A DNA stretch of 64,000 nt from the IMG/VR virus record IMGVR_UViG_3300020578_000034, positions 1-64,000 of that record; one strand, 5' to 3'. The notes beneath the pieces were generated by a model, which ran no database searches, had not been told where the DNA came from, and saw only the letters and a program-made list of their open reading frames with translations. This document shows, piece by piece, positions 21,277 to 63,912 of this stretch. Both the position numbers and the translations under genes were made by a program. The stretch is from a virus. Taxonomy: Duplodnaviria > Caudoviricetes. Position 1 is the first letter of the stretch. Every line of letters starts with the position of its first letter.

Positions 21277-24200
21277 ATGGCCAACCAGCAAACTTCCGAC
21301 GATCTGGACTATCTCTACAAGTCTCTCAACGGTCAGATAAACGTCGATGAGGCGCAGGGCATAGTCGAGGCGTTCGTCGCCGGCGTCGGCAACAAGGACT
21401 CCGTGGGTGACATCTGTCTGCCGGGTTGCTTCACTTCTTCCCTCAAGCGCAGGAAGCCTCGCGTCGTCTGGGGTCACGACTGGAACTCCCCGATCGGCAA
21501 GGTGCTCGAGATCTACGAGGTCGGGCCCAACGATCCGCGCCTGCCGGCAAAGATGCGCAAGGCTGGCATAGGCGGCCTCTACGCGAGGGTGCAGTTCAAC
21601 CTCAAGGCGGAGAAGGGCAGGGAGGCCTTCGCCAACGTGTCGTTCTTCGGCATGGAGCAGGAGTGGTCCATCGGATACAAGACCCTGGACGCGGTGTTCG
21701 ACCCGGTGCAGACCGCCAACCTCCTGAAGGAAGTGGAGCTCTATGAGGTGTCGCCCGTCTTGCACGGAGCCAACCAGCTGACGGGGACGATATCGATCAA
21801 GGCCGACGAGGCCGAGACGCAGACCAAGGAGGGGAAGGGTCCTTGCTGGCCCGGATACAAACAGGTCGGCATGAAGAAGGGCAAGCGCGGGAGGATGGTT
21901 CCCAACTGCGTGCCCATCAACGGCAAATCGCTCGAGGACGAGTGTTGCCCGGAGGAGAAGGCGGGCAAGCCCGTCTTGCGCGACCCCAAGGGCGGACTCA
22001 CGGCGGCTGGTCGGGCCCATTTCAAGAGAACCGAGGGCGCAAATCTGAAACCGGGCGTGAGGGGCGCGGCCGACACGCCGGAGAAAATGCGCAGGAAGGG
22101 TTCCTTCCTCACCCGCTTCTTCACCAACCCGAGTGGTCCGATGAAGAAGCCGAACGGCAAGCCCTCGAGGCTCGCCCTTTCGGCCGCGGCGTGGGGTGAG
22201 CCGGTGCCGCAGAACGCGTCCGACGCATCAGCGTTGGCGGCGAAGGGTCGTCGCCTGCTCGAGAGGTACGAGAACTCGAAGAAGAAGAAGAACAAGAAGA
22301 AGGACGACTCGGACTCGGTGGAGAACAAGAACTACGTCGCGGCCATCTACTCCGCCACGAGTGCGCAGCAGAACGAGACGTTCGGCAGGGCATCCGAGCT
22401 GACCAGGGCGCTGGCCGCGAGGTTCGGCGGCCCCGTGAGACTGGTGACGGCCGACAACGACATAGCGGTGTTCGAGATGGGCGCTGGCGCGTCGGTGGAG
22501 ACGATGAGGGTCGCGTACCACTACGACGGCGACGAGTTCATGTTCGGCACGGCTCAGCAGGTGAAGCCCGAGACCGTCTACATCCCGATCAACCAGACGA
22601 CATCCGGCCAGACTGTCGGCGGGGTCACGACGGGAATAACCCCGAACGTCGGGCACCACGCAGGCCACGTCGGTCACGAGGGGCACTGCTGTCCTTCCTG
22701 CGGAAACGGCGGCAACTGCGACGCATCGGTGGCGCTCACGCGGGGCGAGAGTCCGAGGATCGCCTTCATGAAACTGAAGTCGCTCGGCGACCAGCTCAAT
22801 TTTGAGGTCGTGCCGGTCAACGGAGGTTTCCTCCTGAAGGGGTTCGGGTTCCTTTCCGTTGAGGCGCAGAACTTCGTCGTCAACAAGATAGAGCAGGGAA
22901 TGAGCCGGAAGTTCGTGAACCCGGCGGGGATGGCCATGCGCAGGGGTCTCGGCGTTCCGAACATAAGTGGTGCCGTGCGCGGTTTCAACGTCGACATGAA
23001 CCCGTTCACCGCGAGGGACGCCGACCTGGACAAGCTGGTGCTCGAGGGCAACCCGCTCGTCAACATGGGCCGCGGAGTGCCGGACCCGACGCCGTTCGGG
23101 ATCCCGGATGGGCCGCGCTTCGGTGATCCGAACGTTCCGAGGGTTTCCGACAGAATGAATCAAAGACGCCCGCTGATGATGCCGGCGGTGCCCGAGCCGA
23201 CCGAGGTCCCGGAACCAGCCAAGGAACCAAAGCCGGTGACGGAACCGTCGCCGTTCGTGCCCAAGCCGAACAGGCCCCCGACCCCAGTTCCGCAACCGGA
23301 ACCGGAGACGGAGCCGGTCGTGCCCGTTCCCGTGCCCGAGCCGGAGAGAGAGCCGGTCCCGGTGCGTCCGCAACCAATCAGGCCGACGGTGCCCGTGCGC
23401 CCCCTCGTTCCGACTGGCAGGAGGCGTATTCCAAAGAGGTTGGCGGAGGACTTGGCGCGAGCAGATTCGTTCGACCGCCCGAGCAGGCAGACCAGGCAGC
23501 GTCGTCTCAGGGACGAGGGAATCGACGAAATGCGGAGACTGATGCTGCTCGACGGACCGGAAGCCGGAATGACTTATCCGTCCGACAGGCAAAGCGACAA
23601 CCCGAAGAGCAAGTGGAGGGGCGAGAGGGCAACCATGTTCCTCACATACGATCCGGAGCTTAGGCGCCCGACGGATCCAGATGAAGTCGTACTCCACGAC
23701 AAAGTTCGGAAACAAATGATGGATGCGATTACGAGCGGCGATCCCGACGCCATTTACTCCATGGAAGATCTCACGAATGCAACAAGGAATAGGTTCGGGG
23801 CATGGGATCTGGACACCCCCGAGACCATCAGGATAATGAGAGAAGGGGAGGCGGCCGGGGATACGCCAGAGGAAATTCTGGAGAGAATTCGCGACGCCCA
23901 CGACGCCGCACGCGGCGACATCAGCGATATTGATGGCCCGGAAGCCGGGATGAGCGACCCGGACTCGCGCCGATTCGTGGGGCGGACAGACGTCGAGTCC
24001 CGGGAACGGGAATTCTACGAATTGATGCTGGACGAACGAAGGGCCGACGAAGCACTCACGACTGGCGACACGAGCGTTCTGCGTCCCCGAATACTCGACG
24101 ATATTTTGGAATATCTCGGAGACGAGAACGAAGACGATCCGGATTACGTCCCGTCTGCCGATGAGATCGCCTCTTTGGCGCAGGAATTGGCAGAGGAGGC

Positions 24201-27200
24201 AGTCGAAAAATTCATAAACGAGGATAATTACGTTGGCGGCTCGTCCCGCAACCCTGTGTACAGGGGAAGGAACAACAGGGACCTGTGGCCCAGGCGCGAC
24301 GAAATCTTCAGGAAATTCAGCGGAGGCGACGGGGAAGCCGGAATGAGCAGAGGCGGAGGCGGCCCCGACGAATTGGCCGACAGATTCCGTAAGGCCCGAG
24401 AGGAGAGAGAGCAGCCCGGCAGCAGAGGTCTCGACGACGATACGTCGGCAATGTTTAGACAGGCTGAGGATTCTTTGCGCGGAAGTTTCCGTCCGAAGAC
24501 CAACGAAGTTGATAGGTACGAGTACAGCGACCGAGACAACATCAACGCCATGCGGTCGCAGGCCGAAATAATGAGGACGGACTACAACGACGAAGAAGCC
24601 GCCCAACTCTTTGAGCAGGCCGCGGACATCCTTGAAGATCGACTCGCGATGCCCAAGGATGACGACATCGTCGACGCAGAGATAGTAAGGACCTACGGGC
24701 AACTGGACGAACTCATTGAGAGCCCTTGGCGTCCTGCCGAAAACATAACTCTCCACCTGGATCCGGTGGACGGAAGTATTCGCGAAGCCGATGCCTACGA
24801 AGCCGTGTATTTGGCCAACTCCGAAGAGGCCGAGCTGGACATGTTCAACATCGACGACTACGACTCGGTCGGCTACGACGAAGCGGGCAATCTCGTCAGC
24901 CGGGCCCCCGACGGGGACGAAATAATCTTTACGGCGGAGCAGCTCGATTCGGCCGGTCATAGAAGGAAATACGGCAGAAGGACCTACGGGGAATTGGGAG
25001 AACTCGTGGAGAGCACCTTCCGCCCCTCGGAAAACGAACGCATCTACCGGGATCCAACCAACGGGCGACTTTACCTGGCGGACTCTGGCGACCGGGACAC
25101 CGGCGACGACGCGCCGCTCCCCGACTTCAACATCGACGACTACGACTACGTCGGCTACGACGGAGAGGGCAACCTCGTCGTCCGCGGACCAGACGGGGAC
25201 GACATAATCTTCACGGCGGAGCAACTCGGTGCCACCGGGATGACCCGAGCGGAGATCGAGATGCTTGAGGCGGAGCGGATTGGACTTGCGAACTTGTCGG
25301 CACGACGCGAGAAGATGCGGGATGCCGGGATGTCTCCGGATTATTCGGTCAGATCCCCGAGCTGGCGCGGTCAGGGTGAATTCTGGCTTGACACCTCGAC
25401 GGGGAGAATCTTTTACAGGGACTCCACTGACTTCGAGGATGGGGACGGTTTTGACGGGGAATTCGTGGACATAGCGGGGGTGCAGTCGGAAGACGCCGAT
25501 TGGATCCGCGAGAGTCTGCTCGCCAATTGGGACTCAATAGGTTTCAACACCAGGGGCGACTTCGTCTACAGGGGCGTCGACTTCGGGCAGGCGATGGACA
25601 TCAACGACCCGGCACCGCCGCTTGACAATCGCGGGCAATTGATACCGAACCAGGAAGAGGTCATATTCAGCGCGGAGCAAATCGCCTCCAGGCCCAGGAT
25701 GAGGGACGACGACATCGTCGACGGGGAGATCGTCGACGACGACGGGGAGGCCGGAATGGCCGGTCCGAACAGGAACAGACGCCGCGGGCGCGCCGTGGTA
25801 ATCGATTCCGGAGAAAAGCTCGAGGAACTTTTCAGGAGAAGAAGGAGCGGGGAAGACATCTCGGACATGATGGAGGACATTGACCTGCCGAATCCGGGAG
25901 AACGTGCCATCACGGACCCACCCCCGGGTGCGGAAGCCGGAATGGCCGGTCGCGCCAGGACCAGGGCGGAGAACGCGGACCTGGGGAGAAAGATCTGGTT
26001 GGCAAGGACCCACGACAAGCTGTCGTTGGACGAGGCCGGCCGTCGCTTCAGGACGTCCCGGCAGAGGGCCAGGCAGCTTGAGCTACTCCATCACAAGTAC
26101 CTGCGCGACCTTGGTCAGCAGCACGCCAACAGGCTCGCACGGGCGATGGTCGACGACCCGATGACCGGTCTCACCGACTCCGAGGCGGATCTGCTCAGGC
26201 GACGTTTCGACGGCGAATTGCTCGAGGAGGCGGCTGAGCGATTGAGGACCGACAGGTTCGCCATCAGGCGCATGGAGCAGCTCGCCCTCGCCAAGCTGAG
26301 GAACAGGATGATCGATGATGGTCCGTCGGGTGCGATGGCCCTCGGTCGTGGAGGCAGGGCGGTGGACGCCGCCCGCCCAAAAGCACCAGGGGCCGAAAGG
26401 CCCGGAAGCCGAAGAAGAAGAAACGCGGTTGATCCGAGTTTCATAGAGATCCTCAACTCGCTGAAGGAGTTGGGCGAGGACGGACTGAGCAACGCGCAGA
26501 GGGTGCGACTGGCGGCCCTGATGCGATTCCGTCGTGTGATCAGCAACAAGATAGACCAGTTGATGGTCGGCGGGTCGCGTCGTCGCCGCCTGTCCGCCGT
26601 CGCCCCGGAGGTTGACCAGCTCAACAAGTCCATGCGCGGCCCGTTCTCTTCGCTGGCCGAGGCCGCGAAGATAACCACGGGCAGCCCGAGGGATTTCGTC
26701 TCCTCCGCCATCAAGATCGCGAACGATGAGCAGGATCCGCTCGACATTGACGGACCGATAAACGTACAGGTCTTCGAGGCATTGCGGTCCACGAACGACG
26801 ATTTCGCGGCTGTCGCCAGGACCCTCGGCATGGACGAGGAGATCGTTCGCCTGCGAGCCGCGGCCCACACGTTGAGGTTGCTCGCCTCGGCGAGGCCGGC
26901 CAGGATGAAGGTTTTTAGGCGCCTGCAGAGCAGCGGTGACACCCTGACGTCGATTGAGCGCTTCATCGTTGGGAAGTGGCTCAACGGAGCATCGGACCTT
27001 GACATTGCCGAGAGGATGGGGGACGGGTACGACGCGGCGCGCGTCGCCGCCACGAAGGTTGCGGCGCTAGCCAAGCTCCAGGTAGACGTGAACTCACCGG
27101 AGATGCGCAGCAGGGTGGTTGACGGGAGGATCTTCTACGACGAGTTCGGTCTGTTCGTCGAGCTGACCGACGACGCCGGGGCCACCACCTACAACAGGAT

Positions 27201-30200
27201 CGGTGACGGGCCGATGAGCATGGGGCTACCCGGCGACTTTTCGGACGCGTCCGGGGGTATGTCGCCTCCCAACCGCAGGGTCGTGTTCGCTGACTTCGGC
27301 GACGGGGGCAGGGAATACGTGGTCACTAGGACGGTCCGAAGGGACAGGGCGAACCCGAGCATGGAGTCAGTGATGATGATGCCGGTGAGGGGCGACGACC
27401 AGGCGACGGTGTCTACGCTCATCGGCAGGCAGCTGTTGGGCGACGATCGCGGGGCGAACCTCGAGTTCCCGGCGATTCTTTTGAAATCGGACGGAAGGAT
27501 CACCGGCGTGGCCGACCTCTCGGGCAAAGCAGTTCGTTTCTACGGTTCGCGCGTCATCAACGAATCCGCCCCCAGCGTCGCCGAGAGGGTCGGCGCGATA
27601 AGGGCCAACGACTCGGCGGCAAGGACGAAGATGGACCAGGACGTCGAGGGCGCCGAGAGGAGACTGAGCGGTCTCATGAGGGCGCTGGACCACCTGATTA
27701 GCACGGGCGACTGGATCGGAGGCGACGCAAACGTGACCGGGAGGGTCCCCGAATACGCGACCATGATGAGGTACGGACTCGACTCCGACGACGACGGTAC
27801 GCCGATCACTCCGCGCAACAGGACCAAGGAGCAGTTCGAGCTGGACGAGGCGGAGTTCTTCCTGTCCAGGTACCCGGACGCTCCCGCTGACATGGTGGAG
27901 CAGCACGTCCAGAAAGCCACGTCGGACCGGCTCGCCCAGGTGCGCAGGAAGGTCGATATCGCGAAGAAGGAGCTCGACAGGCTCAAACACGTCCGGGACT
28001 CCAAGGAGGTCAGGCGCTCCCAGAACGTCGTTGACCTCGAGACGCTTGACGACGAGACGGCGAGGATGCTCGCCGACGAAACCGGATTCCTTGCGTCCAT
28101 GTCCGGGCAGGATTACGACGCCGCCGGCGTGTCAAGGGGCGCTGACGGTTTCGCTTACGTTGTCCACAAGGGGCCTGACAGGCTCTCGGGTGGCGTGCTC
28201 GACCCTCGCATGTCGGCGGGCGTCGAGGGCCGCGCCGGGTCGGTGGCCGGGCAGGGCGACACGAGGGGGGCGAACAGGATCTACGTGGCGAGGTTCCTGC
28301 AGTCCGCGGAGGCGAAGTCCGACATGGTCAGGCACTCGTCCGACCTCGCCGCGAGGATCGCCCGAGGCGAGACGGTCGTCACCGCACACCCGTCGATACG
28401 TAAGGCGTTGAGGGCGCAATCCCAGCTCCTGTCGATGGCATTCGGCGAAGGCGGATTGCTGAACATGGAGAACTTCGACGAGGCGCGCGTCGCCGCGATC
28501 GTCGCGGATGTCAACAGGTTCGTCGACGCCCAGAAACGCGACCTCCAGCGCTACCAGAAGATAAGGGACTCGTTGACGAAGTTCGGCGGGAGGGACATGG
28601 ACCAAATGCTGTCCGCCGAGTCGGACGCCACGCGCGCGGTCGGTTCCCTCGACTTCTACGGAAGGTACGCCGATTTCGACCTGCCCCGCGACGTCGTCAG
28701 CTTCTCGCCGGGGTTCACGGACGGGCTCACGAGAAGGTGGACCCCCGTGGACGAAACGATGCTCGACCGGTGGGAGCTGACGGGCTCGCTGCGCGGCGGG
28801 GCGTTCCTGGCGGCGGGCAGGCTGGACGCGGAGATAGTCAGGGGCGGGCTGCTCGGACCGAGCGGCGAGTCGCAGATAATAGCCCCACTCAAACCCCTGA
28901 TCGGAATTTCGACGCCGGTCAGGATCACGAACGACGTCGCGCCGAGCGACCCGAAGTTCCTTGTGCAGAGCCTCGGCCCGGCCCTGATGGCTAGGGCCAT
29001 AAAGATGCACAAGCGCGACGGGTTCGTCGACATCGAGACCGTCCTGACGGACCCGGACTTGGCGCCGCAGGGTTACGTCGCGCGAACCGGGGACGCCGAG
29101 GCCGGTATGGCCGCGCTGGAACCGCGCAGGCCGATCCTCGACGAGCGCGGGAGGCTCGACCCGATTTTGACGCGCGACCAAGCGTACCTGGACGACAGGG
29201 AGGAGAGGGATCTGCCAGATGGACCGATGCAGAGACTCCTCGTCCCGCAGACTCCGTCCACGTTCATCGAGGCCCCTCCTGGTGACCTCACGCCCGAGAC
29301 GAGGAGGGCTCCGTGGGCGATCGGGTACACGGGTTCGGCGGCGGACATCGCCATTGGACTGGACGAGGATTACCCGGAACGACTGGTTCACGTCGTGGCA
29401 CCCTCGGCGTTGCCGCCAGACAACGCAAAATTCCCCGTGAACGAATCGGGCCCGCATCTGATGCTCGACCGGGAACCGCTGGACTTCCTGGTTCACGTGT
29501 TGAACGACATCAACCGCCTGACGGTGGAGGAGAGGGAAGCCTCGGAGAGATCGCTCTCGGACAGGGGCTACGAGGTCGAAAGATCGGAGTTCGACCCCCC
29601 GGACGATTTCACTCCGAGAGAACGTCACCCGACCTACCTTGTCGTCGACGTCAGGAACGAGCCGCAACTTCTGGGTCCCCCCGGAAGCGGGATCACGAGA
29701 ATCATCAGGATCAGGGAAATCCTGAGGTTCAGACTGTCAAACGAGGCCGACGAATCCCAGCCCGGCGGGGGACCGTTCTGGAGGCGAATCGACCCCGAGG
29801 CGGTCGCGAGAGGGGAACCTGGGAGAACCACGACCGATGGCCTTGGGTACATGGACTTCGTGATAGACGTCGACCCAACCTACGACGGAGACCTCATTGA
29901 CGACACCAGGGAGGTGAGGATCAAGCCGGAGAGCATCGTCGGGAGAATAGTCTCCGCCGAGGAGCTGTCCGTCACCTCCCAAGTGACCAGGCAGCTCTAC
30001 GAAGGGGACGGCGTTCGCCGCATGGGGTACCCGCGCCCCTACGGTCGCTCCGGCGGCGACGCAGAGGCAGGGATGGCACTCGCTCCCCGCACGGCCGATC
30101 TGGTCGCAAGGACCGAGAAGTACTTCCCGTCGGACGACAGGAACGACTGGCTGATCCCAGAGTCCGTCATGCCGGACAGGGAGCAGGCGGAGCTCCTCGG

Positions 30201-37680: not shown

Positions 37681-37728
37681 CTACTCATGCAGTCATCAAA
37701 CAAACAGTCTTCTACAATTGGAGGGATC

Positions 37729-39477: not shown

Positions 39478-39681
39478 ATGAACGGCAGACCAAGCGGCGG
39501 GTACACCCGCGGGAACCGTGTTATGGGTTATGATAAACCTACACAAAATAACGCAGTCAAATTGAAATATCACTGCATTGCGACGGGCGAGAAACGCCAG
39601 TTTCCATGCGGCAGTTGCGTCAACCACAAGGGTTGCCTAGCGACGACGATGCAATACAAGGAGCGAAAACATGGAACCTGA
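39478..39681 (+). CDS. Small 4-Cys protein (start may be 39523)
   Basis: CIATGEKRQFPCGSC...GC, matching the Cys repeats of the next gene. Confidence 0.6.
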   Translation: MNGRPSGGYTRGNRVMGYDKPTQNNAVKLKYHCIATGEKRQFPCGSCVNHKGCLATTMQYKERKHGT

Positions 39682-49031: not shown

Positions 49032-49234
49032 TGGAACCGAACAAACCGACCGACGCGACGCCGATCCTGAGGGTCGAGATTCCCGCCGCCAAACTCGACG
49101 CCATCGGCAGGGCGCTGGCCGGTCCTGATCCGCAGGACGACGACGGGTCGCACGCCGAGGCTCAGGCGGATTGGGACCTGATAGTCCGCGAGAGGGGCCC
49201 GAGGACGACAAGCTACGGAGATGCCGATAGCTAA
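49031..49234 (+). CDS. Small acidic protein coupled to the 2457-aa gene
   Basis: TGATG overlap; 67 aa. Confidence 0.5.
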   Translation: MEPNKPTDATPILRVEIPAAKLDAIGRALAGPDPQDDDGSHAEAQADWDLIVRERGPRTTSYGDADS

Positions 49235-49246: not shown

Positions 49247-49252
49247 TATAAT
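49247..49252 (+). promoter_or_regulatory. -10 box upstream of the ~2950-aa gene
   Basis: TATAAT within the imperfect palindrome AACAACTATA-cgtc-TATAATTGTT. Confidence 0.45.
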
Positions 49253-49302
49253 TGTTGAGTAATTGTCAAATCCCGTCGCCGGGAATAGAGGATAAAGGGC
49301 AG

Positions 49303-55300: not shown

Positions 55301-58158
55301 ACGAGGAGAGGCGGAGGATATCCTCCCTGTACAAGAGAGGCCGATCCGGGGACTTTGAGACTTCGGCGACCGCGGAAGAGCTGGTTGATTTCGAGGGCGC
55401 CGACAGATTGTTCGCCGAGGAAGGCGCGATCATCGGGTACAGGAGGGACCTGGCGCCCGCCGAGATTGCTGCTCCGAAATCGTCGAGATTCACCAGGATC
55501 GCCGACAGGCTCGGCCGGCGCTCCCGAAACCGGCGCGACGAAACGGACGGTTCGTCGTTCGGGCCGGCTCCCTGGGATCCGGATGCCGAGCTGGAGGAGG
55601 CGCTGGATGACAGGCGGGCCCGCCAAATCGCGGAGTCGCTGGCGGCGCTCGAGCCCCCGGATTGGATCAGGGATTGGGACCCGGAAGCCGAAGCGGCGGA
55701 GACGAGGAGGGCTAGGTCGGCGGCGGAGGGACCGAACGCCGCCATGAGGGGGGGGCGAGGTGACGACGAACAAAGACGCCTGAGACGCGAACTTGAGCAA
55801 GCTCTAGGACGCGTTGGCCCACTTCCGGAAGCACCAAGCAAAAGATATACGGAACCAATTACCGATGGGCCAGAAATAATAAGGGCAACACCGAGAGGCG
55901 GCGACGCGGAAGCCGGGATGGCGAGCGGCAACAGATCCAGCTCCCTCGGGAGGATCGCGAGGGGGAGCATGAGGGACCGGGCAATTGCCAAGCTGCTCGA
56001 CAAGGTCCTCGACAGGACCGGTGCGGACGAGGAAACCAGGGAGAAGGTGAAGATCGGCCTCGGACTGGCGACGGCGTTCAGCGCGGGGGGGCCGGCCGGC
56101 GCGGCCACGTACGTGGCGGTCGAGGCCGCGAGGAGAGGCGGCAGGGATCTCGCCGAGTTCACCATAGGCGAGTTGCTGAGACGCGGCAAGATCGACGACG
56201 AGCAGGCCCGCAAGGCCATGGCCGCCGTGGACCGGATAGCCCCCGACGGTCTGCCGGACGACGCGAAGAGGCGGCTCGGCAGGGCCTTCTCGGAGGCGGC
56301 CGACCTCTTCAACGAGAGGATCAACACCCCCGAAAACAGGAGAAGGCTCGCCGAGATGGGCGAGGACGTCGTCGACTCGGCGAGGCAGAGAGCCCAGGAC
56401 CTTGGTCGGAGAGTCAGGAGACGGCGCGGTGCCGACTCGAGGGGCGGCGACGCTGAAGCAGGGATGAGTCGCGGGGGCACCGACAAACCGGTGGTCCGCA
56501 CCGACGGGGAGGGAAGACCGCTGACCAGCGCTGCTTCCCCGCAACGGAGCGGAACGGCGACGGAAAACTACGAGGCGAACGTTCGGGGGATAGAGGACGA
56601 CTCCAGATTGGTCCAATCGGAAATTGACGCCTTGGAGGCTGCGATAGCCCAGGCCGAGGCCACGGGGGAATGGAGGGGAGCCGACTTCGGCGTCAGTTTC
56701 GAGGACGTGGAACCGGAAGCGATGCCCACCCAGGCATACCTGACCAGGACTGCGGGCGGAACGAAGAATCCAAGAAACCTGAGTGCCGAAGAAACGAAAC
56801 AAAACGACGCAATATCCAGGGCAAAAACGCGACTGGCGACGGCCAAAAAAGAGCAAGTGAGACTCGCCCGCGTGGCGACGGACAAACGAACGCGCAGGGA
56901 ACAAAACGTTCTCGACCTAGAGGACATCCCGGCGGAAGAGCTGGAACAACTCGTGGCCGAGGCGGAGGACATCAAGCGATTGGTCGCCCAAAGGGACGAA
57001 GCCAAGAAAAAACTGAGAAGAGACCCGAGATTCGCCGATTTGGACCTGGACCAACAACCCATCGCCATAGACGCCGAACTGGACCGAATGGGAATGCCCG
57101 ACCCGCTATCCCCGGGGGCAGGAGAACGAGCGGCCATTCACGTGGGCAGCGACACGCTCGACAACGGCGTCTTGGACCCGGGTTTTACGTCCGGCGACGA
57201 AACGATGGCCATCGGGGGCGGCAACACCGGTGCGATGAATCAAAACCAGATTCGCAACGTCCGGCGACAAAGAGAAGAAACGGCGGGAAAACTCAAAGCG
57301 GCGGAACGCCTCGTTCAGGAACTCGAATCTGGCACCACGACGATAACCCCACGAGACAAGACCGAAGCCGATTTGCTCAACGGAAAGACCAATTCATCTA
57401 GATTTTCCGCCGGTCAATCGGTGGATCTCGACAAGGTCAGGCCAGGCGTCGACGGTGCGACACTGTCGCGCGGGATCGCCGAGAAGATGCGGATCCAAAT
57501 CAAACAAGATCGCGCGTCGTTGACGAGGCAGGATGCGATTCTGAAAAGGATCAGCGAAAGCCCCAAGTTCGGATACGTCAGCGCCTATCCGCTAAGACCG
57601 GAAGGAACGACGATTGAAGGATACTTCGGCAGAAACTCGGGTAAGAAAGTTCCGGCGAACATCGGAACCTTCCTCACGGAAGCCGAGCAAAACGATCGCG
57701 GGCAGAGGACGCCCGACGGTTTCGTGAACGTGAAGGATAGGGGGATGCTGGATCGCTGGAAGAACACGATAAGGGGAACCCAGTGGCTGGTAATCGGAGG
57801 CGACGACACCATCACGAGCCATTTCGGCAATAGCCCGAATAACGAGGCTCAGATCCTCGGAATCAACAAACCCGTTTTCGGTTTCTCCTTCGGTGCGGCG
57901 TCAGCCGCCAACTACAGAACCAATCTCAGCGACATAGGCATGGCCCTAGCCGCAAGAGCGGTATCGCTAAGGAGAAGCGGCGAAGAGGTCACCCCGGAAT
58001 CCGTGATGCAGGCGCGCAGGAAAGTGGAGTCGTCGAGGATAATCATGCTGGCGAGAGGCGGAGCGACGATCGATGAGATAGCCCAAAAAACCGGACGAAG
58101 CTATCAATTCGTGAGCGAGTTGCTCAGGCTCGCCGGAGTCGAGGGCGGGCCCGCATGA
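49303..58158 (+). CDS. ~2950-aa polyvalent protein (zincin, Pro-rich repeats, GNAT, ART-like C-terminus)
   Basis: HELNH...EFAAE; ISPEFRGMGIA; EAGM linkers; ATG 49303 preferred over TTG 49252. Confidence 0.82.
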   Translation: MSPTPFRIPFNAKIVARHGTTSVYALRDGRLAFVDHTKNRTFLDGSRDVGTGTYGSGHNSAWADSRIVAVASKGGSASFAQTKALRPKQSRMPQEAPDQPGEEIPDEAFSRLMPMIPKEFLDWAASYEIGDPLPPMMPGYGGKTLCNKSINDTSYSQDDFGVDQVVERVLADMGLPDINPALAFAPEMETKGLPRMEQKGILGREIRDLARNIADSILTARGLWKDELNKIRCGSGPNANRFTDIFGTGCDVPGADTAGNIVGAIRAGVDVPGPVDEVAGRIEGARESVADAADGMDFPGGKPSLGERLRTALTRVRGGHTPHYVADMPSDIDPAAGMSDVLSRRSDKRGAFQFVRSLVNRNKRRERGKKGEKTHRSAEEMAREAFATREYRDWEQDFTLRKGRLPNRGEKLNWLAEHVGWKGQIRDAAGNPVTDEFGNPVGSFGGLADTAVVDGEVTDMTHFEAMVEQVVRNPNLVEGGNFDMLSEAKKRKIREEVERNIYDYGLQTLFAMKNAGGPEKIEQIQPDGSRILVDNPEHKKRFAEVIPTHFRIIHETDPSNRNPSLRDAAVVTAVNGFEPGIDDVIDFVPEMGTDRRMTAARPLTAGRQRYGSVAGSMPLYVHENQTSGGEIPFVASISLNPLWFINQQTQKDKLAGFGDQHLGMDMSREAFWAHTADHELNHIDDFAQRLGNKLGYWGELGGGREEWMQRLSQQTYTRTPTGGRWSNVIDLRKDAANYTFLGQQIAELDAKLATATTPYERQKAIWFFYMQNMRFDEQTMSDFARWMNRSGAGFTPGKRLSKDEQAAMLNEIYENLRARGYAEETGVPSFSFWQDMIDTPLGYWNPATGTFEFPLDPRTGLLNPYPLNVMNMQPRWTGRRDAMNRPFSDNVATFPDNLDPSRFGPGQPPFGQARLDNSVSNLLHGFIGGTYAGENDYEFAAELRTHLNKQGALADIREFLADPARNIHQLTEADFMTLVARYVGKDEVYRLYGEPMPGPRALPPGFVGPGGGAPPPPGAGGPPGAGGPPGGAPGIPTIPLGPASPPRTPTGGGGGAAPTPSSPRLRGTATRPTIPMVPRADDPDIPTPDDTTPPPASPRLRGTATRPTIPMVPRADDPDIPTPDDTTPPPASPRLRGTATRPTIPTRPSDEGPEAPGDAPEPGAPSRVRGTGVRRPTRPTTDDDLTETTDDDLVEPTVRPETDADRVSPERRRADADRERRLRELFDDVEETPAEREEFEKRVEESRRRAEAVYYSGHYGDVEQAVEDAKRNISSDDRINPRDRERRVRTMDEQVAARRRAIDRIPVATDPKERRGQQIVAAALEAELMYKAGQIDYRTNERRQADLSVLADLNGTPLYRDDQGMFKLESSVPEWQRTEGPDSIDDSAESVASRTALAETMFGKSEASELLGTRSSETDGPTADSQADRLRLNQIREERVNATARVADAETRHDEALRRARRTGSDPDRGGDGDPAAWADYRAAYEELNDADAENARLLRESRELEDRIPKSDTPTPATTRDPSRRSYERPETPEGIIVEGETPQRQIRMTNQTTGEIIYVDPSNARIMDEVRAEGFAPDVRQPTAPARRQASGREKPRTKPVRTVRNQKPDEPDWVRRERARRARAGLADDIPGYDDEPDVGMAPPTRKRSDSDGVREFLEEGDGAFMTPEQARLQRDGAVERRESAISQRERLINERDGVENGVVGRNLTDDQAQRRVEELNRQIAELERRIDDLERTAELFSEHARKLEEGIPIRGRRGGDAEAGMGRTYETLVGTHANVVSRKRDEIARARQTLDGIGTRRNGGLVTREEAKAVAAAFEDLFSGDMRVQSNFEGRLRTELLSNGRTMVRLDAQVNWDEMVQVQDLTSIPITMQIKSADGKTIYGYATRRLEIGDDGVTVHHGSLTISPEFRGMGIASEFNARNENLYKALGVRSITTSGSSSSMTSTNNPFEDQVIGTGATHWARNGFTWRDDDAKQKFIGIIDSALSNKPGIFSDEERRRISSLYKRGRSGDFETSATAEELVDFEGADRLFAEEGAIIGYRRDLAPAEIAAPKSSRFTRIADRLGRRSRNRRDETDGSSFGPAPWDPDAELEEALDDRRARQIAESLAALEPPDWIRDWDPEAEAAETRRARSAAEGPNAAMRGGRGDDEQRRLRRELEQALGRVGPLPEAPSKRYTEPITDGPEIIRATPRGGDAEAGMASGNRSSSLGRIARGSMRDRAIAKLLDKVLDRTGADEETREKVKIGLGLATAFSAGGPAGAATYVAVEAARRGGRDLAEFTIGELLRRGKIDDEQARKAMAAVDRIAPDGLPDDAKRRLGRAFSEAADLFNERINTPENRRRLAEMGEDVVDSARQRAQDLGRRVRRRRGADSRGGDAEAGMSRGGTDKPVVRTDGEGRPLTSAASPQRSGTATENYEANVRGIEDDSRLVQSEIDALEAAIAQAEATGEWRGADFGVSFEDVEPEAMPTQAYLTRTAGGTKNPRNLSAEETKQNDAISRAKTRLATAKKEQVRLARVATDKRTRREQNVLDLEDIPAEELEQLVAEAEDIKRLVAQRDEAKKKLRRDPRFADLDLDQQPIAIDAELDRMGMPDPLSPGAGERAAIHVGSDTLDNGVLDPGFTSGDETMAIGGGNTGAMNQNQIRNVRRQREETAGKLKAAERLVQELESGTTTITPRDKTEADLLNGKTNSSRFSAGQSVDLDKVRPGVDGATLSRGIAEKMRIQIKQDRASLTRQDAILKRISESPKFGYVSAYPLRPEGTTIEGYFGRNSGKKVPANIGTFLTEAEQNDRGQRTPDGFVNVKDRGMLDRWKNTIRGTQWLVIGGDDTITSHFGNSPNNEAQILGINKPVFGFSFGAASAANYRTNLSDIGMALAARAVSLRRSGEEVTPESVMQARRKVESSRIIMLARGGATIDEIAQKTGRSYQFVSELLRLAGVEGGPA
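52495..52737 (+). repeat. Near-perfect 105-bp coding tandem repeat (~2.3 copies)
   Basis: GGAACCGCCACCAGG recurs at 52501, 52606 and 52711. Confidence 0.9.
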
Positions 58159-60896
58159 CTCGCAGAAGGATAGGTTCCAAGCGCACGAGTCGAGACTCGT
58201 TCGTCGACGACAAGACCGACGCCGCCCTGTCGTCCGTGACGCAGCTGGCGGATACCGTGAGGACGAAGGTCATGCGACCCATCGGCGCCAAGCCACTACC
58301 CCCGCCCCACCTGGTGAGGAACGCCGACATGGACCTCTACATCTACGAGGGGATCCCGTGGATCAACAGGGGCCGCGGGATCATCGACCCGACGCCAGGA
58401 TACGCGCAACCACTCAACAGAAGGCTGAGGAGGGAGGCGCAGGCGAACCTGGGAACCCCGGCGCGGATCGTCGCGATGCGACCAAGTCCCATGGTCACCA
58501 TGAGCCACGCGGACGGGCCAATGGCGGCCATGACGGATCCGAGAATTCTGCGTCGCCCAGAGAACATCTACCCGATCGACGAATTATCGGGGCCGATGCA
58601 GGAGATTGAAACCCGCGTCGACGCGATTCTCGGGCCCAAACCGGCGACGCTCAAGGAGGCGACGGACAACCTCAAGAAATTGGAGAACATCGTGAATTCG
58701 GGGGTCGCCAACGGCAACAACTTCCTGCTTGACCCTGCATATTTTCTGGCGCAAATGCAACCAGGGTTGGCTCAGGTCAGCCCAAGGTTTGCCGGGCCGG
58801 CCACGCCGATGTCCAGTTACGACGACGGGTTGTACTACGCGATTGCGGTCAACCTGATCGATTATCCCGAGGCCTTCAGGGATGTTCATTTGACGATCGC
58901 GACGATCAACAATCCCGACGAGGTAAGCGCATCAACAATGGGGGGGAGCGCGGCGAACCCGCCGTCCTACTTAGAGATTTCCCCGAAATCCGAGTCCGCG
59001 AGGAAGGTTCCGCGGGGGGTGCTTGTCTTGTCCCCAGATCAGGTCAGGGCGGACACCGGTGTCAAAGACATGTCGCATTCCACCGCTAGCACCAAAGGAG
59101 GGGTCGCCACCGGCGCGCGCCTGCCGCTAATCGTCAACTTTCCCACATACAAGAGCAACGGCCAGAAGACAACCAAATTGATGTACGGCGGACAAGAGAT
59201 CGGCGAACTCGCGATCCCGGAAGATTACATGGAGCGAATGGAGGAAAATCTGGCTCTTTGGGAAAAGGTCCTCGCGGCGACGGGGGTGGCGCGACAAGCG
59301 CTCATCGACTCCACGGTCTCGTCCGTGGCGCTGGGTTATTTGCAGGAAATCCAAAACCTGCAAGGGAAAATATCGCAACTCAAAGACATGACGTCCCAAA
59401 CGCCCCATCCGAACGCCCTGCAGTCGGTCCGGGCGCTGGAACAGAGAATGTCGGAACTCTACTCCGAGTCCCAAAAAGCGATTGCGATGGTGACGGCGAT
59501 GCACGAAATAGGCCACGTTCTCGACCACCTGGGCAATTACAAAAGCTCCCCCGACTATTTGAACGCTATCGCCAAGACGTCCGGTGGCCTGAACAGCAAG
59601 TACGAGATGCAACGCGACTTGGGCGTCGCCCAAGCACTTGCACAAGGTCTCGACCACCCCATAAAGGCGGACCTAGCGGAAAATGTGGCAAGGAAATTCG
59701 TCAAGGAAAAACTCCTGAAAATGATTGGGATCATATCCAGGAGGAAATCATTGCCGGGGGTGCGGGCGATGGCGCAGGAAGTCGGAGACGGGCTCATGGC
59801 GATGGATGCCTCCCTGAAGCGCATGCTCCGCAAGCGGGCTTCCCCGGCCGAGACCGCGACCGCCGTCGGATCTATCACCCGCATTTGGGAGCGCATGCTC
59901 AGCCACGAAGTGGGCGCCATCAACAGGACAATCATGCCGGGATCGATGATCGCGGGGGCTCCCGACCATTTTGAGCCTACGTTGAAGTCCGATCCAGCGA
60001 AATTGACGAAGATGGCCGAACAGGCCATAAGCCAGATCAGGAAAATAGGGGAGGACAGCATCAAGGCGTTGGCCGACCCCGGGGCCAGAGAGCAGTACGA
60101 CTTCTACGTTCAAGAAATAGATGGTCTCATCAAGGCGGCGGAGGAAAGAATCAGTCTCTTCAAAAAACCCGAACAACGCGCGATCGCACTGGCGATCACG
60201 GCGATAGCGGCCCACAACAACTACCTCAAAGGGTTCAACGCCTTCATGCGCAACACGAGCAGGGAGATGAGTGAACTACAGCAGGCAGAACAAGCTCTCG
60301 CGTATCTAGCCCCCTGGTTCGGGAACAACGTCACCCAGCAGGACATGGACCAGGCCGTCCTCGACTCCGGCAGGAAGATCATGACCGATTTGTTGACCAT
60401 CAACCCTGCGATGGTCCGGGAGTTCATGGAGATCTACGGACGCAACGAAGGCAAACCGTGGTTTGACGGCGCCGGAGCGTTCGATGCGACCGAGTACCTG
60501 AAGGACATCCTGGGGGGCGGGCCCTTCAACCTGAAGGGCATGGACCTTATCGAGCTTTTGCAGGTGATAAACCATTGGCACGCATTACAAGGGACCAACG
60601 GTTGGAAGAATCTCACCGACAAGGAGATAGGGCTCGTTCAGTCCGCCGCTGACAAACTCACCGACTACGGCGGTCCGGCGGATTACGATTTCTCGATTCC
60701 TTTGCCAAAGTCCCAAATGTCAACCAACAAGGAAACCTACGCCGAGCTGCATCCGATGATCCTGATGAGAATGGAGCGGATGTTGCAAAAGCTGACCGCC
60801 GAGGAGAGGCGAGCGGTGGAGCGCCTGCACGAAGAGATGATCGCGATGGCCAGGGCCGTCATAAACAGCACCAACCAGGGAGGCACAACGCCATGA
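58155..60896 (+). CDS. 913-aa protein with shared N-terminal motif and zincin domain
   Basis: RNADMDLYIYEG...GRGIIDPTP; DGPMAAM linker; HEIGH...NKETYAE. Confidence 0.78.
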   Translation: MTRRRIGSKRTSRDSFVDDKTDAALSSVTQLADTVRTKVMRPIGAKPLPPPHLVRNADMDLYIYEGIPWINRGRGIIDPTPGYAQPLNRRLRREAQANLGTPARIVAMRPSPMVTMSHADGPMAAMTDPRILRRPENIYPIDELSGPMQEIETRVDAILGPKPATLKEATDNLKKLENIVNSGVANGNNFLLDPAYFLAQMQPGLAQVSPRFAGPATPMSSYDDGLYYAIAVNLIDYPEAFRDVHLTIATINNPDEVSASTMGGSAANPPSYLEISPKSESARKVPRGVLVLSPDQVRADTGVKDMSHSTASTKGGVATGARLPLIVNFPTYKSNGQKTTKLMYGGQEIGELAIPEDYMERMEENLALWEKVLAATGVARQALIDSTVSSVALGYLQEIQNLQGKISQLKDMTSQTPHPNALQSVRALEQRMSELYSESQKAIAMVTAMHEIGHVLDHLGNYKSSPDYLNAIAKTSGGLNSKYEMQRDLGVAQALAQGLDHPIKADLAENVARKFVKEKLLKMIGIISRRKSLPGVRAMAQEVGDGLMAMDASLKRMLRKRASPAETATAVGSITRIWERMLSHEVGAINRTIMPGSMIAGAPDHFEPTLKSDPAKLTKMAEQAISQIRKIGEDSIKALADPGAREQYDFYVQEIDGLIKAAEERISLFKKPEQRAIALAITAIAAHNNYLKGFNAFMRNTSREMSELQQAEQALAYLAPWFGNNVTQQDMDQAVLDSGRKIMTDLLTINPAMVREFMEIYGRNEGKPWFDGAGAFDATEYLKDILGGGPFNLKGMDLIELLQVINHWHALQGTNGWKNLTDKEIGLVQSAADKLTDYGGPADYDFSIPLPKSQMSTNKETYAELHPMILMRMERMLQKLTAEERRAVERLHEEMIAMARAVINSTNQGGTTP

Positions 60897-61261
60897 ACGA
60901 CGAGGAATTTATCAAAATAAGACGGGAAATAGAGGCGATGTCCGACGACGAGCTAGTTGCCAAATTCAATTTGGGAGAGCTGGACGAGAGCCAGGTCAAT
61001 CGGATGCTTTTCAAGACCGCGGACTATTTCTTCCCGCCACGCGTCAATCCGTTGGCGAAAGAGATGGTTGCACGCCTGCTGGACCATTCGATTCAAAATG
61101 GAGACAGTCCGTTGGAAACGAGGATTGCTATGTCAATTGCTGTACCGATTATCGCAAAAACGTTCGCGGGCGGAAAAGAGGCGACCTCGGTCGACCTCGA
61201 GATTGACGAGCTTGAGCGAATCGGCGACAAAATACGGAGGTTGATCGACGATGAAAACTGA
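60893..61261 (+). CDS. Hypothetical acidic protein
   Basis: 122 aa; GGAGG SD; ATGA overlap. Confidence 0.65.
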   Translation: MNDEEFIKIRREIEAMSDDELVAKFNLGELDESQVNRMLFKTADYFFPPRVNPLAKEMVARLLDHSIQNGDSPLETRIAMSIAVPIIAKTFAGGKEATSVDLEIDELERIGDKIRRLIDDEN

Positions 61262-61826
61262 TGACACGGGAGTGAAGGCGGATCCGCTTGGCGGCCTGCT
61301 GCCGCAGGAGGTCGTCACCGGCGACATAATGCGCGGCTACGGCCCGCGGCGCGGGAACCTCGAGCGGTTGCTGCGCTACTGGAGACCGATAATGAAAAAG
61401 CCCGGCGGCTTCCGGAGATGCAGGGTGATCCTGGCGGACCACCCCGAGCTGTACCCGCTGAACAACATCTGCGCCTGGTTGCACCACGAGACGACGGGCC
61501 TCTGGCCCAACGAGGGCTGCCACCACCCGGGGATGAAGAACTGCAGGAGAAAGTTGCGCGGAGTGGTGAACGGGTCGCTGTGGAGCGACTCGGATTTTGA
61601 CGACCGCATGAGGAAGCTGACGAGGAGGGCGACCAAGAAGAAGGACCTCCGGTCCAGCGGTGGAATCGACGCGGCGCCACCGTACGAGCCGTTCGTCCCA
61701 GTCATCACCGACGACGACTGGGACCACGCCTGGAAGGTCATGGACGACTTCGTGAAGATGGAGACGAAATTCGTCGCATTCGTGTGCGACGACAACAACT
61801 GGGAGATGTTCGACTCGGATGTATGA
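61251..61826 (+). CDS. Phage head-region protein with Cys/His motif
   Basis: LLRYW, PGGFRRC and CAWLH..TTG.WP pattern that I recall from actinophage head regions; GGAGG SD. Confidence 0.65.
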   Translation: MKTDDTGVKADPLGGLLPQEVVTGDIMRGYGPRRGNLERLLRYWRPIMKKPGGFRRCRVILADHPELYPLNNICAWLHHETTGLWPNEGCHHPGMKNCRRKLRGVVNGSLWSDSDFDDRMRKLTRRATKKKDLRSSGGIDAAPPYEPFVPVITDDDWDHAWKVMDDFVKMETKFVAFVCDDNNWEMFDSDV

Positions 61827-63912
61827 CCTAACGAAGGCGACCGAGTGCTGTCCCGGCAAGGAGACGGTGACCAGGACGATCCTGCCGTCCATCGCCGTGT
61901 CGAGGGACAGCGTCTACACCCTCCCGTTGTCCGTGGCGATGAGCAAGCAACATGCGGTCGACTTCAAGTGCTACCAGCTGGTCAAGGTCGGGCCCCACGC
62001 GGAGGTGTACGACCACAGAATCAAGTTCAAGGCCGGTCTCGTCAGGTCGGACAATCCCGTCGTGCGCGCGGCGCAGGCCGTCGCCGGAGCGGCCATCCCG
62101 GGCAACATCTCCAGCCTCAGGAGCCCCGGGCGCTCGGCGATGTGGTCGGCGCTCACGCCCGGGGGGAGTTCGCCGATCCAGAGGGTTGGCTCCAACCCGC
62201 TCGCCAGGGCCGCCGCCGCGGCGTTCCCGAAGCCCGACAGGGGGTTCCGTTGCCCGGAGGGATTCCAGTTCGGTGGGCAGTTCACCGACAAGTATTTCTC
62301 GACGTGCGGCAAGAAGCTTTTCGTCCTCGCCGTGTCCATGCTGACGGGTGGCCCGCAGCAAATTCCTCTGAGGTCGCCGCGTCTCACGAGGGAGCTGAAC
62401 ATATCCGGTATCCCGCTCGTCCCGATAGGCAACGCGGGTCAGGTGTCGTTCACGAGGAGCCCCGACATAGAGATACCAAAGGTCGGCTCGACCAACTTTG
62501 GCTCGTACAAGCAGGCGATCAAAAACGTCGCCTCCGAGATGACCGAGAGCACGAAGCCCGTCGCCAGGCTGGTGAGGAGGGACGGAGTCGTGCTTACCCC
62601 GCTGGTCTCCCCATCCGTCCTGAGGACCGTACCCGACAACAGGAACATGGAGGGTGCGTCTTACATCTCCTACGTCATGAAGCCGACGCAGATCGGTGGC
62701 CAGGAGCTGGGGATGTTCTCTAACAGCGGAATCAACTCGCTGGTGTATGTGCTCCCCAACGGTGGGACGCTCACCCTGAGGAAGACGCGCAACCTGAGCA
62801 ATGGTGAGAGACGCAAGCTCGGCAAGCTCGTGGCCGAGGCGGAGAGGATGCAGAATGGCTCAGACGCCGCCGCCAGGATTGAGCACATCGTTGCGGAGAT
62901 GGACGGTCCGATCTCGTACGAGCAATCCTTCGGCGACCTGCGCGGGCCGAACGACATGATCACGATAATCGATCCGAAGACGAAAAGGCAGCGACAGATA
63001 CGGCGCTGGTACAGGGACGCATTCATGCTCGACAAGGCCCCCAGCCAGACCTCCTCCCGTACAACGCAGATAGAGGACGAGGCCGGGATGGTCGAAGACC
63101 TCAGCTCCGCCATAGGCATGCTGAACCAGGGCGGCCAGATCGGCAACATATCCCCAGAGTTGCGAATCCCCGCGATGGACATGAGCAGGGTCGCCGAGAG
63201 CAGGCGCCTGAACAACCGCACGACCAACTACAGGATCGGGGACGAGACATTCACCGCCGTCACCCCCACCGTCGCCAACGAGCACATCGGGGTGATGGTC
63301 GCCGCCGAGGTCCAGTCGCAGCTCGGGGCCCTGTCGCCGGAGGTGTGGTTCGCGGGGTCGGGATCGCGCAGGCCGTACATCATCTCCTACCCGGACGACT
63401 CCGAGTCGCTGGGACGGTTCGCCAGGAGCACCGGCATGGACCTTGCCGACCCCGAGGACATGGTGAGGTTGATGATCGCCGACGTGCTCACGGACGTTCG
63501 CGATCGCAACCCGTCGAACCTCTTCACGGTCGGCGACACCTCGCGGAAGAGGACCTTCGGCGGACCTGTCGCATCCTCCGGCGGGGCCGGCCTGACGCGC
63601 GACGAGCTCGCCAAGAGGGTAGACGCCCCGAAGCTGGTGGTGCTGAACGAGATCGAGAACTCCATGTACCGGGATTTCTTCATGCGGTTGCGAAAGGAGC
63701 AGAGGAGGCGCGCGGAAGCGCTGCTCGAGGAGATGCTTGAGCGGGCGAGGAGATTCGATATGGGAGAATTCTTCAGGCGCATGGCGATAGACGGAAAGCT
63801 CTCGGAGGCCGAGCGCAGGCACATGGACATAGTCAAGGCAATATACGAGAACAGGGTGAGGACCCTCTCCGGCTCCCTCAAGTTCGTTAGGAACGTAATA
63901 AATGGAATCTGA
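61819..63912 (+). CDS. 697-aa protein with C-terminal HipA/PI3K-like kinase fold
   Basis: RCPEGFQFGGQFTD motif; EAGM at 63079-63090; IADVLTDVRDRNPSN catalytic-loop-like motif. Confidence 0.7.
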   Translation: MYDLTKATECCPGKETVTRTILPSIAVSRDSVYTLPLSVAMSKQHAVDFKCYQLVKVGPHAEVYDHRIKFKAGLVRSDNPVVRAAQAVAGAAIPGNISSLRSPGRSAMWSALTPGGSSPIQRVGSNPLARAAAAAFPKPDRGFRCPEGFQFGGQFTDKYFSTCGKKLFVLAVSMLTGGPQQIPLRSPRLTRELNISGIPLVPIGNAGQVSFTRSPDIEIPKVGSTNFGSYKQAIKNVASEMTESTKPVARLVRRDGVVLTPLVSPSVLRTVPDNRNMEGASYISYVMKPTQIGGQELGMFSNSGINSLVYVLPNGGTLTLRKTRNLSNGERRKLGKLVAEAERMQNGSDAAARIEHIVAEMDGPISYEQSFGDLRGPNDMITIIDPKTKRQRQIRRWYRDAFMLDKAPSQTSSRTTQIEDEAGMVEDLSSAIGMLNQGGQIGNISPELRIPAMDMSRVAESRRLNNRTTNYRIGDETFTAVTPTVANEHIGVMVAAEVQSQLGALSPEVWFAGSGSRRPYIISYPDDSESLGRFARSTGMDLADPEDMVRLMIADVLTDVRDRNPSNLFTVGDTSRKRTFGGPVASSGGAGLTRDELAKRVDAPKLVVLNEIENSMYRDFFMRLRKEQRRRAEALLEEMLERARRFDMGEFFRRMAIDGKLSEAERRHMDIVKAIYENRVRTLSGSLKFVRNVINGI

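Follow-up and report, generated by a model that had tools for sequence, protein, structure and literature searches.

The giant genes between the portal and capsid genes of a tailed virus, IMG/VR record IMGVR_UViG_3300020578_000034 (Duplodnaviria; Caudoviricetes), are divided into modules by a short peptide, E-A-G-M with variants, which we refer to as the linker. The window analysed is the first 64 kb (64,000 nucleotides) of a single 87,841-bp viral contig, and results from the rest of the contig are given as such. The linker occurs far more often than composition predicts, is selected as a peptide, falls at the borders of modules and is conserved in related viral records. On these grounds we lean, with caution, towards the reading that the genes encode cargo polyproteins and that the linker is a site of proteolytic processing; the cutting, the enzyme, packaging into the head and delivery to the host are what we infer from this arrangement.

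The head block begins with the portal gene, continues with nine large open reading frames (ORFs), namely A, B, C, D, E, F, G, I and J, and is bounded downstream by the capsid gene. From A to J it covers 65,371 nt, or 74% of the contig (about 21,600 codons). Its genes, all on the plus strand, are as follows.

18971..21190: portal fused to a MuF-like domain, 739 aa (Pfam Phage_portal, 1.8e-50; Phage_Mu_F, 1.6e-09), the first gene of the head block
21277..37680: candidate polyprotein A, 5467 aa, with 10 exact and 6 variant linkers and 17 modules
37687..39465: protein B, 592 aa, without linker or family match
39671..41647: protein C, 658 aa, without linker
41658..49031: candidate polyprotein D, 2457 aa, with 5 exact linkers, one FAVAAM site and 7 modules
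49252..58158: candidate polyprotein E, at most 2968 aa (start codon uncertain), with 3 exact and 3 variant linkers
58155..60896: protein F, 913 aa, with a leader, one variant site and a HEIGH motif
61819..63912: protein G, 697 aa, with one weaker EAGM site
63902..69469 of the contig (63902..64000 in the window): protein I, 1855 aa, with a leader and no linker
70892..86647 of the contig, beyond the window: protein J, 5251 aa, with 9 exact and 3 variant linkers
87024 onward (87024..87841 of the contig): capsid gene, truncated by the contig end

Occurrence and form of the linker

An initial annotation, made from the letters of the window, had listed 19 exact copies of EAGM and ten variants. Both lists were reproduced: the exact copies lie at the given Met codons (10 in A, 5 in D, 3 in E and 1 in G), and all ten variant sites have an ATG and the peptides described. 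No exact EAGM is present in the portal, B, C or F. In the list below, which covers the sites of the window (all on the plus strand), G3 and G1 are two related viral records, G0 being the genome studied here, and orthologous sites are those of relatives.

23554..23571: DGPEAGM in A, at the end of the protease-scaffold part; conserved in the relative L002 and in G3
23935..23952: DGPEAGM in A
24328..24345: GDGEAGM in A
25315..25332: variant RDAGM in A
25741..25758: DDGEAGM in A
25927..25944: PGAEAGM in A; orthologues DAGM and QAGM
26320..26337: variant GPSGAM in A; orthologues SAGM
27244..27261: variant DASGGM in A; orthologues SAGM and LAGM
29092..29109: GDAEAGM in A
30058..30075: GDAEAGM in A
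31213..31230: GDAEAGM in A
33973..33990: variant GPFAGM in A; orthologues GPSAGM and GPMAGM
34897..34914: ADAEAGM in A, the front border of a module missing from G3 and G1
35506..35523: variant DAEAAM in A, the rear border of a module missing from G3 and G1
36265..36282: RDGEAGM in A
36571..36588: variant DANAGM in A; orthologues DPNVGM
41904..41921: FAVAAM before S in D, just past the leader (see below)
42843..42860: SGPEAGM in D
44046..44063: PDGEAGM in D, the front border of a helix-turn-helix (HTH)-array module, within a 22-bp direct repeat
44805..44822: PDGEAGM in D, the rear border of the HTH-array module, in the second copy of the 22-bp repeat
46245..46262: SDGEAGM in D
47013..47030: ADGEAGM in D
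50299..50316: variant DPAAGM in E, identical in G3 and G1
54217..54234: variant EPDVGM in E; orthologues PEAGM and ADAGM
54592..54609: GDAEAGM in E
55729..55746: variant GPNAAM in E
55903..55920: GDAEAGM in E
56449..56466: GDAEAGM in E
58515..58532: variant GPMAAM before T in F, past the leader of F; present in G3 too
63073..63090: IEDEAGM before V in G, scoring 12.5 against the matrix; one EAGM is also found in each of the G-like proteins of G3 and G1

Enrichment was evaluated for the ten plus-strand head-block proteins of the whole contig, where EAGM is the most frequent 4-mer: it occurs 28 times in 21,597 residues, against 0.40 expected by composition; over 2000 shuffles the average was 0.40, and no shuffle had more than 4 copies. 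The peptide is also specific to the giant ORFs, as no match to the position-specific scoring matrix of the linker scored 12 or more outside them in six frames. The initial annotation had seen no EAGM in the minus-strand tail or DNA-metabolism proteins. One copy, RRQEAGMEKN at position 13318, does occur in the minus frames, and it has neither D/G-x before it nor a small residue after it.

The linker logo reads G-G-D-[AG]-E-A-G-M-[SAT]-x-[PR]. Across genomes the core is [APGT]-E-A-G-M-[SATG], with looser forms x-A-G-M or x-A-A-M, and the Asp/Gly located two residues farther upstream is likewise conserved. As had been described, a small residue (S, A, T, G or V) follows Met in all 19 window copies. 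Ribosome skipping of the 2A type has the consensus D-x-E-x-N-P-G-P, and its N-P-G-P is not found in the logo.

Two earlier statements about the modules required revision. Their number, put at roughly 30, came to 48, with 42 sites including variants; the system runs on past the window into I and J. Furthermore, the modules had been called effectors; only a minority have recognisable domains, namely HTH/sigma region 4, DnaQ-like exonuclease, NUDIX, zeta-toxin-like kinase and possibly ADP-ribosyltransferase, and the modules are at most putative effectors.

Selection on the peptide

The inference of peptide-level selection had been drawn from synonymous variation, and this variation is real: the Glu codon is GAA in 8 of the 19 window copies and all four Gly codons are used (third base A in 4, G in 11, T in 2 and C in 2). 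Comparison between genomes strengthened it, as third codon positions differ at 44 of 81 places in 27 orthologous EAGM pairs (G0 against G3 or G1). Linker codons for Glu, Ala and Gly follow background usage in G0 (GAG in 20 of 28, against 0.71) and are also at background in G3 (GAG in 6 of 18, against 0.36).

Protein identity has the converse profile. Over the 19 sites that keep an aligned Met, a choice of sites that favours the Met column, identity at E, A, G and M is 0.76, 0.95, 0.87 and 0.95, respectively, compared with a background of 0.48 and with 0.26-0.45 at 6-17 residues upstream. Glu is replaced at some orthologous sites (DAGM, SAGM, NVGM, MAAM), and Met almost never. Together with a median exact nucleotide match of 4 nt between linker pairs, these data support the conclusion that the linker is selected as a peptide and not as DNA.

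Conservation among relatives and exchange of modules

A protein-based search, combined with a motif-based DNA scan of viral contigs, provided five related records, with the following occurrences of the EAGM-coding pattern.

G001: coding strand 21, other strand 1
G002: coding strand 18, other strand 1
G003: coding strand 18, other strand 0
G004: coding strand 7, other strand 0
G005: coding strand 3, other strand 0

A reversed control pattern had 0 occurrences in all five. A look for an equivalent linker in related genomes had been suggested, and the system is common to four viral records, the fifth having three copies. G3 (117 kb, GC 0.55) and G1 (79 kb, GC 0.61) share gene order with G0; G3 spans portal to capsid gene and is an estimated 79% complete, and the G1 contig starts inside A. 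Their orthologous proteins, which are 45-63% identical and retain the linker positions, hold 18 copies in G3 and 21 in G1. In 20 more distant relatives, an unbiased 4-mer count revealed no other punctuating motif.

Modules have been gained or lost along these borders. Three-way alignments of G0, G3 and G1 contain 22 long gaps (at least 60 residues), of which three start and finish no more than 12 residues from a site (A760-1017 in G3; D791-1047 and D796-1044 in G3 and G1), and another four correspond to A4537-4744, which is split in two in each of G3 and G1 and has sites at the outer ends. The modules that are missing from linker to linker are A765-1023 in G3, and A4546-4749 and D802-1055 in both G3 and G1. 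Identical 22-bp direct repeats (44043-44064 and 44802-44823) encode the linker and lie on either side of the HTH-array module, D803-1051, apparently a cassette that was gained or lost recently. L002 has an extra module between two linkers that is homologous to a module elsewhere in A, and in L024 (GC 0.67) the protease-scaffold ORF is joined to a C-like protein via DAEAAM before S.

A DNA pattern scan for DAEAGM[AST] gave at least 112 loci, mostly single chance matches. Two supposed carriers of the motif, L083 and L135, had no similarity to the G0 phage and were dropped as chance. Unrelated small phages (L085, L098, L113, L114, L137, L140, L162, L173, L178 and L188; GC 0.50-0.57) encode low-complexity proteins of 135-366 aa with 1-4 copies of [RV]-D-A-E-A-G-M-S-R-G-[TR]-R, some of them with an N-terminal hydrophobic helix. 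In 10 of the 112 listed motif-selected loci, a free-standing 84-aa gene for DUF6321, a domain also found in A, lies a few genes away. A search for an S78 protease in the small phage L162, by hhalign against two of its head-module proteins, returned probabilities of 0.1 and 0.2.

Modules between the linkers

That linkers lie between domains, in exposed stretches, was confirmed in two ways. None of 12 Pfam/PHROG domain stretches holds a site, a result reached in 0.6% of 20,000 random placements, and the hydrophobic fraction of linker flanks is 0.13-0.16, against a background of 0.28, with 0 of 5000 random sets as low. S78, DUF6321, sigma-70 region 4/HTH, DnaQ-like exonuclease, NUDIX and zeta-toxin-like domains are spread over A, D and J. 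The last two modules of J contain a NUDIX hydrolase (residues 4714-4844, 8.1e-10) and a zeta-toxin-like P-loop kinase (5018-5189, 6.5e-18), each within a single inter-linker module.

A coincidence of linkers with the ends of a protein is provided by one module of D:

46263..47018, plus strand: module D1536-1787, which equals a free-standing phage protein of about 240 aa (phrog_4776, 5e-58)

Among cultured phages, 112 records contain a free-standing homologue of this module, and Mycobacterium phages account for 105 of these; gp121 of JoeDirt, 242 aa, is an example. The module matches 130 database proteins, of which 89 were aligned (median 237 aa). When the six homologues longer than 270 aa are excluded, the ends of the remaining 83 project to query positions 16 and 250, the linker Met being at 21 and the next linker at 272-277. 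An AlphaFold2 model based on 90 sequences (mean pLDDT 83.8) falls below 50 only at positions 1-21 and 273-289, that is, at the two linkers. Foldseek of the model against the Protein Data Bank (PDB) gave no match at E <= 0.001; the structural similarities are weak, all with Z < 8, and consist mainly of ADP-ribosyltransferases, the closest being to the diphtheria toxin catalytic domain (Z 6.6, rmsd 3.7, 97 aligned), KptA (Z 6.2) and TreX (Z 5.4). The family consensus reads YRG...SWT...ExE, and the module may plausibly be an ADP-ribosyltransferase.

Most of the other modules are orphans. A profile of two modules, searched against 1.84 billion representatives, matched three proteins, namely orthologous polyproteins of 5106 and 3806 aa and one piece of 253 aa, with no free-standing homologue among these representatives, and A760-5467 had one homologue among shorter proteins. 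No Pfam matches were found in B, C, F, G and I, and no PHROG matches in B, E, F, G and I. An AlphaFold2 model of A2550-3400 (851 residues, 3 sequences) had a pLDDT of 34.6, too poor for use; its disordered stretches include three linkers, which is weak evidence.

Leader, protease and proposed processing

Features that may bear on the processing and addressing of the chains, all on the plus strand, are the following.

21349..21813: S78 prohead serine protease domain, A residues 25-179 (PF04586, 9.9e-11, 42.5 bits against a cut-off of 21; phrog_80, 2.8e-26)
21979..22194: DUF6321, A residues 235-306 (PF19846, 8.4e-27)
23017..23094: leader in A (DADLDKLVLEG...GRGVPDPTP, from residue 581), at the end of the protease-scaffold part and before the first linker
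41760..41837: leader in D, from residue 35
48516..48530: HEFFH motif within D's last module, with the same residues in G3 and G1
51334..51348: HELNH motif in E, also retained in G3 and G1
58320..58397: leader in F

Further leaders lie at residue 245 of I and residue 128 of J. The shared sequence, N-P-F-T-A-x-D-A-D-x-D-x-L-V-L-E...G-R-G-x-x-D-P-T-P, is present in one copy in A, D, F, I and J, as well as in the orthologues of these proteins in G3 and G1. It does not sit at the very start of the chain and is usually followed, 30-50 residues on, by FA[IVL]AAM plus a small residue or by GPMAAM plus T, an arrangement that fits a candidate head-targeting tag that would later be removed. We also observed that the leader resembles an EF-hand-like DxDxDG loop in the relatives L020 and L024 and in protein B.

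The PF04586 match spans profile positions 9-159 of 165. Within the domain, H67 and S131 are invariant in 19 relatives and are the presumed S78 catalytic pair; a PDB sequence search with the alignment of protease plus DUF6321 gave no match at E <= 0.01. A small residue after the cut is typical of the S78 protease superfamily. Prediction of a complex between the protease plus DUF6321 and a 40-residue linker alignment returned a score of 0.00, which is no answer and counts as evidence neither way. The HExxH motifs of D, E and F (in F, HEIGH) are conserved in all three genomes, and the three regions had no match among Pfam or PHROG peptidase families.

We thus propose the following sequence of events. 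The leader of A, D, F, I and J would address each chain to the assembling head, and a protease would cut A, D, E and J at the short exposed peptides that divide them into modules, beside the invariant Met, that is, at G|M or at M|small residue. The enzyme would most likely be the S78 prohead protease contained in the first 180 residues of A, or else one of the three conserved HExxH modules; in favour of the former, the S78 domain opens A and the first linker ends the protease-scaffold part. Some 48 separate proteins would result and enter the host with the DNA, and the delivered set would range from DNA-binding or sigma-like modules to enzymes, among them an exonuclease, a NUDIX hydrolase, a zeta-toxin-like kinase and a possible ADP-ribosyltransferase.

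Alternative explanations

Several observations weigh against this scheme, beginning with the fact that cutting and packaging are themselves inferred steps. Met is an unusual determinant of specificity, and Glu varies more than Met, unlike what is expected for the Glu-specific enzymes of T4 and phiKZ. The capsid protein, which has a delta-like coiled coil, has no x-A-G-M site at the delta border in G0, G1, G3 or the relative L037, so that one must suppose a second specificity of the prohead protease or a different enzyme for the linkers. In relatives with a protease domain about 75% identical, the protease gene runs into a stop after about 555 aa, and no punctuating motif is seen. Moreover, 15 of the 22 long gaps have at least one end inside a module and are not bounded by linkers on both sides, and tandem DAEAGM occurs in the unrelated small phages without detectable S78, where cutting would release pieces of only about 34 aa. 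Finally, GAG encodes Glu in 21 of 21 linkers of G1 (background 0.63, p = 1e-4), where every copy reads GAGG-N5-ATG; this bias leaves room for a nucleotide-level role in that genome.

The capsid protein without the motif and the three HExxH motifs conserved in D, E and F of three genomes would also suit linkers that are cut after ejection, in the host, by a HExxH module or a host protease, with the prohead protease serving only to mature the head. In their article text, Iyer et al. (2017; PMC5512222) propose that zincin-like peptidases process polyvalent proteins in the head or after injection. We regard cutting in the host as unlikely, given that no HExxH region reaches a Pfam or PHROG peptidase family and that the first linker coincides precisely with the point where the protease-scaffold part of A ends. 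If the linker were instead bound and not cut, it would be a docking peptide, recognised by some conserved protein (possibly DUF6321, a protein of the head or one of the host), and the chain would be tethered or ordered with its proteins intact. This would account for the one to four copies of DAEAGM-S-R-G in small low-complexity proteins of unrelated phages, for DUF6321 near them in 10 of the 112 listed loci, and for its position after the protease in A, and tandem copies 34 residues apart fit avidity better than product release. Nevertheless, docking seems improbable to us: the 10 loci come from one or a few phage lineages and so represent about two independent co-occurrences, many DUF6321-bearing loci lack the motif, and a tether would not need what is found here, namely a motif always at the borders of modules that equal free-standing proteins.

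Nested products that begin at internal in-frame starts are known from lambda C/Nu3, and the linker ATG could be such a start, with GAGG-N5-ATG as its ribosome site. Met is the most conserved residue and always precedes a small one, as at true N-termini, some copies have GGAGG 5 nt before the ATG, and the uniform GAG of G1 would agree. Even so, we hold internal initiation to be very unlikely, and a ribosome-site reading of the linker was rejected on codon evidence: in G0 and G3, GAA is as frequent as in the background, third positions have come close to saturation with Glu, Ala and Gly kept, and the Asp/Gly two residues further upstream is conserved too. In addition, the ribosome sites of true genes in this phage are AAGGAG or GGAGG, placed 7-9 nt before the start and separated from it by A-rich spacers, none of the relatives has a polyprotein broken up at a linker, and the ORFs stay open for more than 5000 codons. 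We give scarcely any credence to a functionless linker, that is, a flexible spacer or a recombination junction copied during cassette shuffling. The identical 22-bp repeats flanking one module, and the changes of modules in place and number among relatives, speak for such a junction; the 4-nt median match between linker pairs speaks against it, and the four residues are kept at GC 0.55 to 0.63 with synonymous sites near saturation, while neighbouring spacer residues vary freely.

Genome context

Outside the head block, the window contains terminase and tail genes:

17403..18716, minus strand: terminase
6494..7954, minus strand: tail sheath

The tube and a tape-measure-like ORF are also on the minus strand, and the minus-strand terminase and tail proteins are about 35-42% identical to those of Gordonia phage Gray. 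The baseplate genes and lysin A of Gray have no match on the contig, which, together with the capsid gene running off the contig end, indicates an incomplete genome. The possibility that the contig is circular, the capsid gene continuing at position 1, was considered and rejected, as the frame at 1-909 runs antisense to the tape-measure ORF and is rich in Arg. Cultured relatives have separate cargo-like genes between portal and capsid; those of Gray include genes for an HTH protein, a VIP2-like ADP-ribosyltransferase and an RNA ligase.

Immediately downstream of D, F, I and J are small, mostly acidic ORFs of 67-139 aa, and several of these overlap the stop of the large gene:

49031..49234 of the window: small ORF after D
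60893..61261 of the window: small ORF after F
69466..69885 of the contig: small ORF after I
86693..86896 of the contig: small ORF after J

These ORFs could act as chaperones of, or confer immunity to, the last modules, which in D is a HExxH module and in J a zeta-toxin-like kinase. An ORF of 191 aa (61251..61826) has a Cys/His-rich block (GPRRGNLERLLRYWRP...CHHPGMKNCRRKL) that is free-standing here and embedded in protease fusion proteins of the relatives L020, L024 and L027.

Comparison with known systems

If the linkers are indeed cut as processing sites of cargo polyproteins, this would be the most regular polyprotein system seen in a tailed phage, in which one short portable site separates dozens of proteins. 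It would show how a phage packs a large, varied and ready-made set of proteins and swaps its members as cassettes, and would offer a defined pair of protease and site for studying the loading and release of head cargo. It would also mark about 48 module borders in otherwise unannotatable proteins.

The closest described relatives are the polyvalent proteins of phages and conjugative elements, which have 2-15 domains, are linked to MuF and portal genes, and are predicted to release their domains by embedded peptidases, in analogy with RNA-virus polyproteins (Iyer et al., 2017; PMC5512222). The same article text places assemblin-like peptidases at the C terminus and does not use the word 'linker' (PMC5512222). 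The proteins described here likewise combine many unrelated domains in one polypeptide, with portal-MuF directly upstream and the capsid downstream. They differ in their number of modules, which reaches 17 in one protein and totals about 48, most of these without family match, and in that S78 occupies residues 25-179 of 5467, unlike a C-terminal assemblin-like peptidase. The zincin trait of polyvalent proteins has a possible counterpart in the HExxH conserved in D, E and F, regions without a Pfam/PHROG peptidase match.

Head cargo offers a second comparison. The internal proteins of T4 and Alt, an ADP-ribosyltransferase, carry a capsid-targeting sequence and are trimmed by gp21, and head and ejection proteins of phiKZ and SPN3US are cut at a protease consensus. 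Should our reading hold, the likeness would extend to prohead loading, cutting by a prohead protease at a short consensus and ejection with the DNA, with Alt as a possible parallel to module D1536-1787. The T4/phiKZ cargo, in contrast, is encoded by separate genes and trimmed once or a few times after Glu, whereas here dozens of modules are chained, the protease is S78 and Met is invariant. Their Glu-cut consensus, which is shared with the capsid, differs from the situation here, where Glu is the least conserved core residue and the capsid has no site. As to the T4-type targeting peptide, a possible counterpart is the leader, which A, D, F, I and J carry once each in three genomes and which lies away from the extreme N terminus.

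Very large genes in or beside the head module are also found in actinophages related to this one. In Microbacterium cluster EK phages and in Burro, genes encode more than 4400 aa, and the product in Burro is described as virion-associated and 'likely processed' (Jacobs-Sera et al., 2020; PMC7302621). The article text describes no linker or repeated motif and lacks the word 'polyprotein' (PMC7302621). Similarly, gp48 of Streptomyces phage Gilgamesh (L208, 4979-18853) has 4624 aa and lies between a portal-MuF fusion and a protease; it contains no EAGM or recurring motif, its top 4-mers occurring at most 4 times, and has no BLASTP similarity to the giant proteins described here.

In polyproteins of positive-strand RNA viruses, one translation product is cut by one protease at one short site at every border, the picornavirus 3C sites being an example. 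Here the setting is a tailed dsDNA phage with an HK97-type serine protease, and no homology is implied. That such a strategy operates in this phage, with one protease acting on about 42 Met-centred sites to release about 48 proteins, a ready-made early proteome that travels with the DNA, and exchange of linker-bounded cassettes between phages, we put forward tentatively, as a possibility that we would stop short of expecting. In agreement with the initial annotation, which knew of no described system with such punctuation, a literature search found no paper on the motif (the supplements of PMC5512222 and PMC7302621 fall outside this search and could bear on novelty). We regard the linker-punctuated proteins as a variant of polyvalent or head-cargo proteins.

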